DNA of 593 bases from Escherichia coli (GCF_003334255.1 NZ_QOWU01000218.1), one strand, 5' to 3'. Numbered from the stretch's first letter, positions 1 to 593 are shown. Numbers and translations: made by a program. Notes: generated by a model from the letters alone, not told the origin.

Positions 1-4
1 GCAT
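1..4 (-). CDS. Rz1: Start of embedded Rz1-type outer-membrane lipoprotein spanin (o-spanin); only the ATG at 4..2 and one further base are inside the window
   Basis: ATG at 4..2 on the minus strand is in the +1 frame of Rz, 220 nt downstream of the Rz ATG and inside the Rz codons for ELADA. This is the same offset and motif at which lambda Rz1 initiates. A GAGGG ribosome-binding site lies 9 nt upstream (18..14), and the +1 frame has a TAG stop at 10..8 immediately before it. The lipoprotein signal and lipobox cannot be seen because they lie beyond the window. Confidence 0.5.
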
Positions 5-224
5 CGGCTAATTCCCTCGAGTATTTTGCATCGAGCGCAGCAACATCGCGCTGGCGCACCTGCATATCAGTAATGGTGGCGTTTGCCAGCTCCAGCTCTC
101 TGGCTTTTTTATCGCGCTGCGCTTTGTAGGTGATGGCGTTATCGCGGTAATGGTCTGTTGCCAGCCACAGCGCACCACAGCCACCCGCCAGGACAATAAT
201 CACCACACACAGAACACGGCTCAT
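1..224 (-). CDS. Rz: Rz-type inner-membrane spanin (i-spanin), N-terminal 74 codons; partial, the 3' end of the gene runs past position 1
   Basis: Reverse-complement translation from ATG at 224..222 gives [74 protein letters not shown] with no stop to the window edge. It has an N-terminal hydrophobic signal-anchor segment followed by a charged segment that matches, from memory, the phage lambda Rz N-terminal region ([51 protein letters not shown]) nearly residue for residue. Not in the supplied ORF track because it is open-ended. Confidence 0.9.
14..18 (-). promoter_or_regulatory. Shine-Dalgarno ribosome-binding site (GAGGG) for the embedded Rz1 start
   Basis: Plus-strand ccctc at 14..18 is GAGGG on the minus strand, 9 nt upstream of ATG 4..2. 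From memory, lambda has AAGGAG at the equivalent position upstream of Rz1. Confidence 0.4.
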
Positions 225-231
225 CTCTCTT

Positions 232-363
232 TCACCCCACCAGTCCCGATAACGTCAGGACTCGCCAGGCGGTGGAAAAGAAAATGGCAACCAGCATTAG
301 TGAAAATGAAATGCCGACAATTACACAGAGGATCTTCGCCAGCGTTATGAGTTTGTCTGACAT
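232..363 (-). CDS. Hypothetical 43-aa small membrane protein (one predicted transmembrane helix), translationally coupled to Rz
   Basis: ATG at 363..361 is preceded by AAGGGAGG (378..371) with a 7-nt spacer. Translation is [43 protein letters not shown], then TGA at 234..232, which is 7 nt before the Rz ATG. A hydrophobic stretch of about 22 residues ([24 protein letters not shown]) fits a single membrane helix. The track's longer version (start 453) begins with GTG directly after a stop, has a Gly/Cys-rich N-terminus and lacks a ribosome-binding site. Confidence 0.5.
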
Positions 364-370
364 GCTTAAT

Positions 371-378
371 CCTCCCTT
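371..378 (-). promoter_or_regulatory. Shine-Dalgarno ribosome-binding site (AAGGGAGG) for the 43-aa ORF; overlaps the TGA stop of the upstream ORF
   Basis: Plus-strand cctccctt at 371..378 is AAGGGAGG on the minus strand, a near-perfect complement to the 16S rRNA 3' end, 7 nt upstream of ATG 363..361. Confidence 0.6.
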
Positions 379-560
379 CACGATTTCAACGCAATGACCA
401 GTTTTGCCAGCCCATACAGCATCGGGGACACAGCAACACCGACCGCCACCCACTTAATGGCAAAAGCCAGTGCTCTGCTGATGTCATCAGTTACAGGCGC
501 TTTCAGTTCAAGGCCATTTTTCATAGTCAACCTCAACAGAATTCGTTTATACTTTTCCAT
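378..560 (-). CDS. Hypothetical small tail-anchored membrane protein (60 aa if ATG 560; 48 aa if ATG 524); 5' end unresolved because the frame is open to the window end at 593
   Basis: Frame translates MEKYKRILLRLTMKNGLELKAPVTDDISRALAFAIKWVAVGVAVSPMLYGLAKLVIALKS, then TGA at 380..378. ATG at 560..558 is preceded by AGGGAG (569..564, short 3-nt spacer); the alternative ATG at 524..522 is preceded by GAGG (534..531, 6-nt spacer). The N-terminal part is charged (K/R/E/D) and the C-terminal 25-30 residues are hydrophobic. The stop abuts the ribosome-binding site of the next ORF. Confidence 0.45.
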   Translation of the reverse strand: MEKYKRILLRLTMKNGLELKAPVTDDISRALAFAIKWVAVGVAVSPMLYGLAKLVIALKS

Positions 561-593
561 GTTCTCCCTTGCCTTATCCAAGGTCAGAAACAC

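Follow-up and report, generated by a model that had tools for sequence, protein, structure and literature searches.

A compact junction between two small membrane-protein genes and the spanin gene Rz in a lambdoid late lysis cassette of Escherichia coli

The stretch of Escherichia coli DNA considered here (593 nt, hereafter the window) carries on its minus strand three closely spaced genes, and the question that it raises is whether this compactness reflects a shared transcript, a coupled translation or a common function of the encoded proteins. According to the sequence, the ORF list and the anti-Shine-Dalgarno (anti-SD) duplexes, the first gene (O1) ends with a TGA stop codon at 380..378 and is followed by a 14-nt spacer, AGGGAGGATTAAGC (377..364), which contains the Shine-Dalgarno (SD) sequence of the second gene (O2), AGGGAGG (371..377), directly 3' of the O1 stop. 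O2 runs from an ATG at 363..361 to a TGA at 234..232, and a spacer of 7 nt, AAGAGAG (225..231), separates it from the ATG of Rz at 224..222. The SD of Rz, GGTGGGGTGA (241..232), includes the O2 stop codon as its final three bases. The positions given by a first-pass annotation for the O1 and O2 stops, the 7-nt AAGAGAG gap and the Rz start all match on the minus strand. This annotation had also described the O1 stop as overlapping the ribosome-binding site of O2; the stop abuts the SD core GGAGG (375..371), without overlap. AAGAGAG is a spacer and not the SD of Rz, the best anti-SD match upstream of this gene being GGTGGGGTGA (-11.4 kcal/mol).

A segment of Escherichia phage PhiR12_3 (PV340552.1, 29476-30068) matches the window at 100% identity, as do prophages of E. 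coli chromosomes, and at least 80% of the window is present in 987 of 5,426 complete E. coli genomes. Public records already contain this sequence, with its ORFs listed as hypothetical proteins. Both annotated records show the order class II holin (S), 177-aa lysozyme (R), spacer, O1, O2, Rz and packaging/terminase genes. The holin and endolysin genes lie directly upstream of O1-O2-Rz on the same strand, as indicated by PHROGs and annotation. S (locus L001, 4133-4339) matches phrog_9876 and phrog_20 and is named 'class II holin' by PGAP, a pinholin-type protein, while R (L001, 4344-4877) matches phrog_7 and belongs to the type called SAR endolysin in Stx phages (PMC8136144). The spacer between R and O1 measures 156-192 nt, depending on the annotated O1 start. 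With Q at positions 20537-20962 of the record and terminase at 31446-33152, the cassette is located between both, and no stx gene was found in the fetched region of this phage. The locus belongs to the lambdoid late-operon lysis cassettes (S-R-Rz/Rz1), of the Stx-phage type.

Upstream of the cassette, an STnc100 RNA that ends in a terminator was detected with Rfam (L001, 999-1215, 149 bits), and also in a second locus (L083, 1653-1860, 68 bits). This far-upstream element was the sole match in Rfam scans of the window and five loci at gathering threshold. In PhiR12_3, it overlaps an annotated 46-aa 'hypothetical protein', and Q is separated from the element by approximately 4.5 kb of cargo, among which are restriction-enzyme-like and hok-like genes. 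In a Salmonella prophage, STnc100 sits between Q and the holin. We infer that STnc100 is the promoter-proximal PR'-tR' leader of a Q-antiterminated late operon. In Stx phages and lambda, the lysis genes are read by Q-modified polymerase from PR' through tR' (PMC7547250). A single mRNA across O1, O2 and Rz is the default expectation from gene content and lambdoid biology, because these genes lie in a lambdoid Q-antiterminated late lysis cassette. The location between S-R and terminase, with Q and an STnc100-type leader upstream, supports the previous proposal of a single transcript for the three genes, and the accompanying claim that no space is left for a promoter or a terminator agrees with a consensus scan of the window, whose coding strand holds neither type of site. 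The operon proposal is probably right but textbook, lambdoid lysis genes being densely packed in one Q-dependent late transcript.

The spacing itself, with same-strand gaps of 14 nt between O1 and O2 and 7 nt between O2 and Rz, is real but ordinary for phages and not above chance for a phage, because similar gaps are common in PhiR12_3, in K-12 operons and at the R/Rz junction of lambda. In PhiR12_3, 42% of the same-strand adjacent genes are separated by gaps of at most 14 nt, and both gaps are of this size in 13 of 49 consecutive gene triplets. Half of the intra-operon distances of E. coli K-12 (50%) are of 10 nt or less (PMC4538824). Two plus-strand ORFs of the window (150..350 and 272..397) were rejected as antisense to conserved coding sequence, and so was the sole promoter-like match (524..553, plus strand), the score of which was also at chance level.

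In the lambda cassette, holin, endolysin and i-spanin follow each other as they do here, the o-spanin is likewise embedded, and the position between Q and the packaging genes is the same. R and Rz overlap by 4 nt in lambda, and the phage of the window likewise links Rz tightly to its preceding gene. However, R and Rz are here 492 nt apart, with a hairpin and two tiny membrane-protein genes between them, and the cassette differs from that of lambda in having a class II (pinholin-type) holin and a SAR-endolysin-type lysozyme of 177 aa. A closer relative is the region of Stx phages of the Sakai Sp5/933W type, with the order S, R, ant, ECs_5707, Rz, Rz1. Sp5 shares with the window the Rz family, the first 85 nt after R, and the O2 homologue ECs_5707 before Rz, with an identical 7-nt AAGAGAG and an identical 60-nt leader. 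In contrast to the window, an antirepressor gene replaces in Sp5 the hairpin and O1, and the O2 homologue has a different start (48 or 44 aa). The Qin prophage of K-12 harbors a different type of Rz, which overlaps rrrQ directly, and no comparable small ORFs.

The hairpin just mentioned follows R and resembles a terminator. It has a 14-bp stem, AAAACCCCG...CGGGGTTTT, and a T-rich tail, with the stem at 4968-5000 of L001, between R and O1; the tail, GTGTTTCTGA, enters the window at 584..593 (minus strand), leaving the stem just outside. The same hairpin follows R in L083 (2909-2945), and it is kept in most architectures of this region, with E. coli variants that differ almost only in the loop. 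Salmonella also keeps the stem, with two double changes that preserve pairing. The hairpin did not match any Rfam family. If Q modification is incomplete, it could partition transcripts. A T-run also follows the hairpin on the opposite strand, and it may act in both directions.

O1 (378..524, minus strand) belongs to the beta family (phrog_1115, 6.5e-47) and encodes 48 aa when read from the ATG at 524..522. Annotation of its start is inconsistent: the phage record gives 48 aa, PGAP uses the ATG at 560..558 (60 aa), and the longest ORF begins at a GTG at 593 (71 aa), which is located within the T-tail of the hairpin after R. Alignment of divergent homologues, together with Salmonella and type-G DNA (see below), places the beginning of the conserved core at M13, that is, the ATG at 524..522, and the forms of 60 and 71 aa represent variable N-terminal extensions. 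Judging from this alignment, the start is probably ATG 524..522 and not GTG 593. Compared with the Salmonella and type-G DNA, this allele appears to have acquired the ATG at 560 through a deletion. O1 contains one transmembrane (TM)-grade hydrophobic 19-mer. Its homologues occur in an Escherichia/Shigella setting and in Salmonella, always annotated as hypothetical. The Salmonella O1 is directly contiguous with Rz (TAAgaaggttgccATG), in a cassette whose holin and lysozyme are different.

O2 (232..363, minus strand) encodes a single-pass membrane peptide of 43 aa from the gamma family (phrog_4906, 2.5e-27), with one TM-grade hydrophobic stretch. It has 106 homologues, all of them 'hypothetical' and the named ones from Escherichia/Shigella only, and among them is ECs_5707 of Sakai Sp5. 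Selection was examined in 80 viral contigs encoding Rz relatives of 86-100% identity. The dN/dS values, pooled over non-independent pairs of mosaic alleles, were 0.14 for O1 (0.84 and 1.83 in the shifted frames) and 0.38 for O2 (0.67 and 1.46), with 0.10 for R and 0.27 for Rz at the same loci. In addition, the length of O2 is exactly 43 codons in 11 distinct alleles. Owing to these low ratios relative to the shifted frames and to the preserved length of O2, O1 and O2 are genuine conserved coding genes for tiny membrane peptides, predicted to cross the membrane once. Neither of them had a significant match in Pfam, NCBIfam or PADLOC, their PHROG families are all of unknown function, and no homology to characterized small lysis regulators or defence proteins was detected in these four collections. 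No paper mentioning the name ECs_5707 was found in the literature, nor any relevant one on the PhiR12 phages (text matches to 'PhiR12' were unrelated), and the survey of Stx-phage cassettes does not treat the small ORFs between R and Rz (PMC8136144).

The window holds the 5' part of Rz (1..224, minus strand; phrog_13 'Rz-like spanin', 6.7e-32), an i-spanin of 155 aa in full that continues past the window. A TM-grade 19-mer is present at its N-terminus, records annotate it as Rz or lysis protein, and the Rz gene that occupies the same place beside O1 in Salmonella carries the PF03245 Phage_lysis domain. Embedded in the +1 frame of Rz, and outside the window (L001, 5605-5775), is the gene for the o-spanin lipoprotein Rz1, a proline-rich protein of 56 aa that begins with MKLCVLMLLLVVSAC and has the lipobox VVSAC. 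Rz1 is unannotated in both PV340552.1 and the RefSeq chromosome record.

The possibility that translation of Rz is tied to that of O2 was addressed through the initiation signals and the predicted structure of the mRNA. The anti-SD duplexes of O2 (-11.3 kcal/mol) and Rz (-11.4 kcal/mol) are the two strongest SDs in the cassette, within the top ~2% of the positions of the locus, and are spaced approximately 6-7 nt from their start codons. Initiation de novo is feasible at both genes because each has its own strong SD. The O2 stop codon lies inside the SD of Rz, 7 nt from its AUG, and an mRNA hairpin of 81 nt is predicted over the Rz start (212..292, minus strand; -33.7 kcal/mol, z = -3.12), which only 1 of 200 shuffled sequences equalled. 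Its 5' arm, UUUUCUUUUCCACCGCC (284..268), is inside O2 and pairs with the SD of Rz and the spacer, and its inner stem has 8 bp (263..242). The initiation region of Rz (-20..+13) shows a predicted unpaired probability of 0.18, compared with a locus mean of 0.43 (sd 0.11), which corresponds to the 1.25th percentile; the other annotated starts tested have accessibilities of 0.40-0.61. The low accessibility is due to the 81-nt hairpin formed with the 3' half of O2, and it is predicted to increase to 0.50 once all upstream pairing is blocked.

This structure is a local feature of certain alleles. The fold of the whole 221-nt junction has a z of -0.01, and the 81-nt element alone stands out. The helix that sequesters Rz is confined to the alleles of two of the architectures described below (A and B), which share one 60-nt leader, and the accessibility of the Rz start in other architectures is mildly low (0.25-0.40). 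RNAalifold analysis of seven junction alleles yielded a weak consensus (-4.4 kcal/mol), with one uninformative double change and no informative covariation, and the O2/Rz junction did not match any Rfam family. Since the consensus is weak and the covariation uninformative, a conserved RNA element is not claimed. Structural coupling between O1 and O2 was also considered and dropped, as the hairpin at the O2 SD is no better than those of shuffled sequences (z = -0.74). This hairpin would form between the SD (AGGGAGGAUU) and GAUCCUCU, located ~30 nt downstream inside O2 (336..377, minus strand). The latter sequence resembles the anti-SD of the 16S rRNA.

Studies on reinitiation in E. coli help to assess both junctions. 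Reinitiation has been reported to drop steeply with distance, 2 nt costing 5-70% and 38 nt 80-100%, so that a gap of 14 nt is already marginal (PMC10666635), while in another study its rate was low and flat from 0 to 25 nt, with a contribution of ribosome-assisted unfolding (PMC4538824). Coupled gene pairs (PMC4538824, PMC10666635) resemble the window in their short same-strand gap, in a stop beside or inside the SD and, for Rz in this allele, in a hairpin predicted to be inhibitory that reaches back into the preceding coding sequence. Unlike the classic coupled pairs, which overlap by -4 or -1, the genes of the window show gaps of +7 and +14 nt and strong independent SDs. The coupling of O2 to Rz that had been deduced from the gap is plausible, with partial support in silico. 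In the allele of the window, translation of O2 probably enhances that of Rz without being obligatory for it, a prediction held with slightly better than even confidence, and the coupling of O1 to O2 is estimated to be weaker.

The region between R and Rz was compared, from the stop codon of the former to the start of the latter, in 75 related loci with Rz alleles of 86-100% identity. This slot shows at least eight architectures, with intervals of 298 to 2132 nt. The window represents type A (492 nt; six loci plus L060), with O1 and O2 ending 7 nt from the Rz ATG. Both genes also occur in type C (487 nt, eight loci), at most 11 nt from this ATG, and in type D (478 nt, five loci), where O2 has a frameshifted C-terminus and overlaps Rz by 4 nt. 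Sakai Sp5 belongs to type B (993 nt, 17 loci), with an antirepressor gene and O2 (ECs_5707), 7 nt from Rz, and type H (1197 nt, five loci) combines a 231-aa antirepressor-like ORF, a 37-aa ORF and O2, at most 11 nt from the Rz ATG. In type E (642 nt, four loci), the order of O1 and O2 is reversed: a 31-aa ORF, O2, an O1 remnant and a 28-aa ORF that ends 1 nt from Rz. The shortest slots hold a single ORF that ends 1 nt from the Rz ATG, either an unrelated one of 32 aa (phrog_6632; type F, 298 nt, 14 loci) or an O1-like one of 37 aa (type G, 335 nt, 12 loci). In one additional locus, the Rz ATG is overlapped by a methyltransferase gene. In total, the slot houses tiny TM ORFs of three unrelated families (phrog_6632, phrog_1115/4493 and phrog_4906), as well as genes for antirepressors and for a DNA methyltransferase, and the first 85 nt after R are common to nearly all architectures.

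Of the 75 loci, 72 have an intact ORF, small and hydrophobic, whose end is no more than 11 nt away from the start of Rz, and the spacer from the last ORF to Rz is of 1 nt, 7 nt or up to 11 nt, or is replaced by a 4-nt overlap, depending on the allele. This pattern is partly trivial, because the SD of Rz in the tiny-ORF architectures of E. coli consists of related motifs, GGTGGTGA or GGGGTGA, whose TGA, which is mostly the stop of the upstream ORF, ends any ORF in frame. The C-termini shared by these peptides (IRWW, and AIK followed by S, G or R) correspond to leader DNA of the downstream gene. Rz is intact in L026, in which O2 is frameshifted from codon 5, in L072, in which the O1-like ORF is frameshifted, and in L095, which retains O2 with a broken O1 and a broken leader ORF. 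As O1 and O2 are found separate, reordered, decayed or absent beside near-identical Rz alleles, the slot appears to be a recombination hotspot in which both genes would be exchangeable modules and not obligate partners of Rz. Some alleles show further peculiarities at Rz. L045 and L057 (~2495-2512; architectures C and H) have an ATA at the position aligned to the Rz ATG, and in architectures C and H translation of Rz must begin either 9 nt downstream of this position, with an ATG, or with a GTG that shares bases with the O2 stop (GTGA). In the E. coli contigs L091 and L092 (~2118-4141), a Tn3-family transposon truncates the cassette right after O1-O2, removing Rz.

Taken together, these data are likely to be best explained by the O1-O2-Rz junction of a lambdoid (Stx-phage-like) late lysis cassette with exchangeable small genes, in which Rz is boosted by O2. 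O1, O2 and Rz would be carried on a long late mRNA synthesized from PR' by the Q-antiterminated polymerase, with S and R upstream and Rz1 and the packaging genes downstream, as suggested by the context and by lambdoid biology. O2 and Rz would initiate with their own strong SDs, which the upstream stop abuts (O1/O2) or falls into (O2/Rz). Ribosomes ending O2 would stop 7 nt before the Rz AUG and melt the predicted hairpin that buries the SD and AUG of Rz, and from this termination and melting we infer that translation of Rz is probably boosted by O2. O1 and O2 would be exchangeable modules housed between R and Rz, in a slot prone to recombination.

The claim of the first-pass annotation that O1, O2 and Rz function together goes further, and adjacency does not establish it, the slot being a mosaic in which O1 and O2 assort independently of the Rz alleles. 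A dedicated functional unit, such as an envelope-spanning complex or a set of spanin accessory factors whose stoichiometry is set by coupling, would fit the TM-grade segment found in each of the three products, the small hydrophobic ORF that ends at most 11 nt from Rz in 72 of 75 loci, the fact that O1 neighbours Rz even in cassettes of Salmonella whose holin and lysozyme differ, and the enrichment of complex subunits among close or overlapping gene pairs (PMC10666635). However, O1 and O2 assort independently also of each other, their order is reversed in type E, copies are decayed or frameshifted next to an intact Rz (L026, L072, L095), ant and a methyltransferase gene occupy the same slot, and the late operon also holds unrelated cargo such as stx. 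Moreover, Rz/Rz1 of lambda functions without any small ORF of the O1/O2 kind, and we consider such a unit improbable. Still less probable is that the tiny ORFs are mainly cis-acting leaders, which would bring ribosomes to the Rz start and unfold it, with a secondary role for the peptide. The location of the upstream stop, mostly inside the Rz SD (GGTGGTGA or GGGGTGA), with an ORF overlapping the Rz ATG elsewhere, is consistent with this idea, as are the unrelated ORF families in the same position, the frameshifted O2 variants (type D and L026) that stay open and end overlapping the Rz ATG, and the predicted burial of the Rz start in the A and B alleles; these leaders would act after the long spacer and the hairpin that separate R from Rz. 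Nevertheless, a dN/dS below 1 for O1 and O2 and the strict length of 43 codons of O2 argue that the peptide sequence matters, all three tiny-ORF families stay membrane-like, the TGA inside the SD would end any in-frame ORF, Rz has a strong SD of its own, and O1 is not adjacent to Rz in the window.

A very improbable explanation is that O1 and O2 were inserted as a moron-like unit driven by a promoter of their own, which would be active in the lysogen irrespective of late transcription and serve purposes such as exclusion or host fitness. Membrane peptides of small size are typical of morons, ant and the methyltransferase gene exemplify the cargo for which the slot is a hotspot, and a terminator-like hairpin parts R from the small ORFs. 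However, no sigma-70-like promoter was found from R to Rz on the coding strand, the hairpin is upstream of the ORFs and not downstream, no terminator precedes Rz, and PADLOC gave no match. The preferred reading thus remains that of a late-operon junction with exchangeable small genes. Beyond it, the tiny membrane peptides of the slot might be unrecognised accessory lysis factors or dedicated coupling leaders that would set spanin translation past the terminator-like hairpin that follows R, a proposal that we regard as doubtful; as accessory factors, they could tune the timing of the pinholin or the SAR endolysin, or spanin activity. Small membrane regulators of lysis, such as the antiholins RI and RIII of T4, LysA of P2 and the releasin gp25 of Mu, are found in holin cassettes with or without a SAR endolysin. 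No sequence similarity of these proteins to O1 or O2, which are smaller, was detected with Pfam, NCBIfam or PHROGs.

What is still new in this locus are the R–Rz slot's tiny, uncharacterised membrane peptides and the conserved hairpin after R, and the useful by-product of the analysis is a map of this slot in Stx-type phages, including ECs_5707 of O157 Sakai Sp5. If the peptides modulate the timing of lysis, phage burst and Shiga-toxin release would be affected. Apart from the hairpin that follows R, a second terminator-like hairpin (12-bp stem and T-run) sits just upstream of the holin (L001, 4057-4085). A 2026 preprint places the prophage sRNAs PasA/PasC upstream of the holin and not after R, and this second hairpin occupies the position given there for PasA/PasC.
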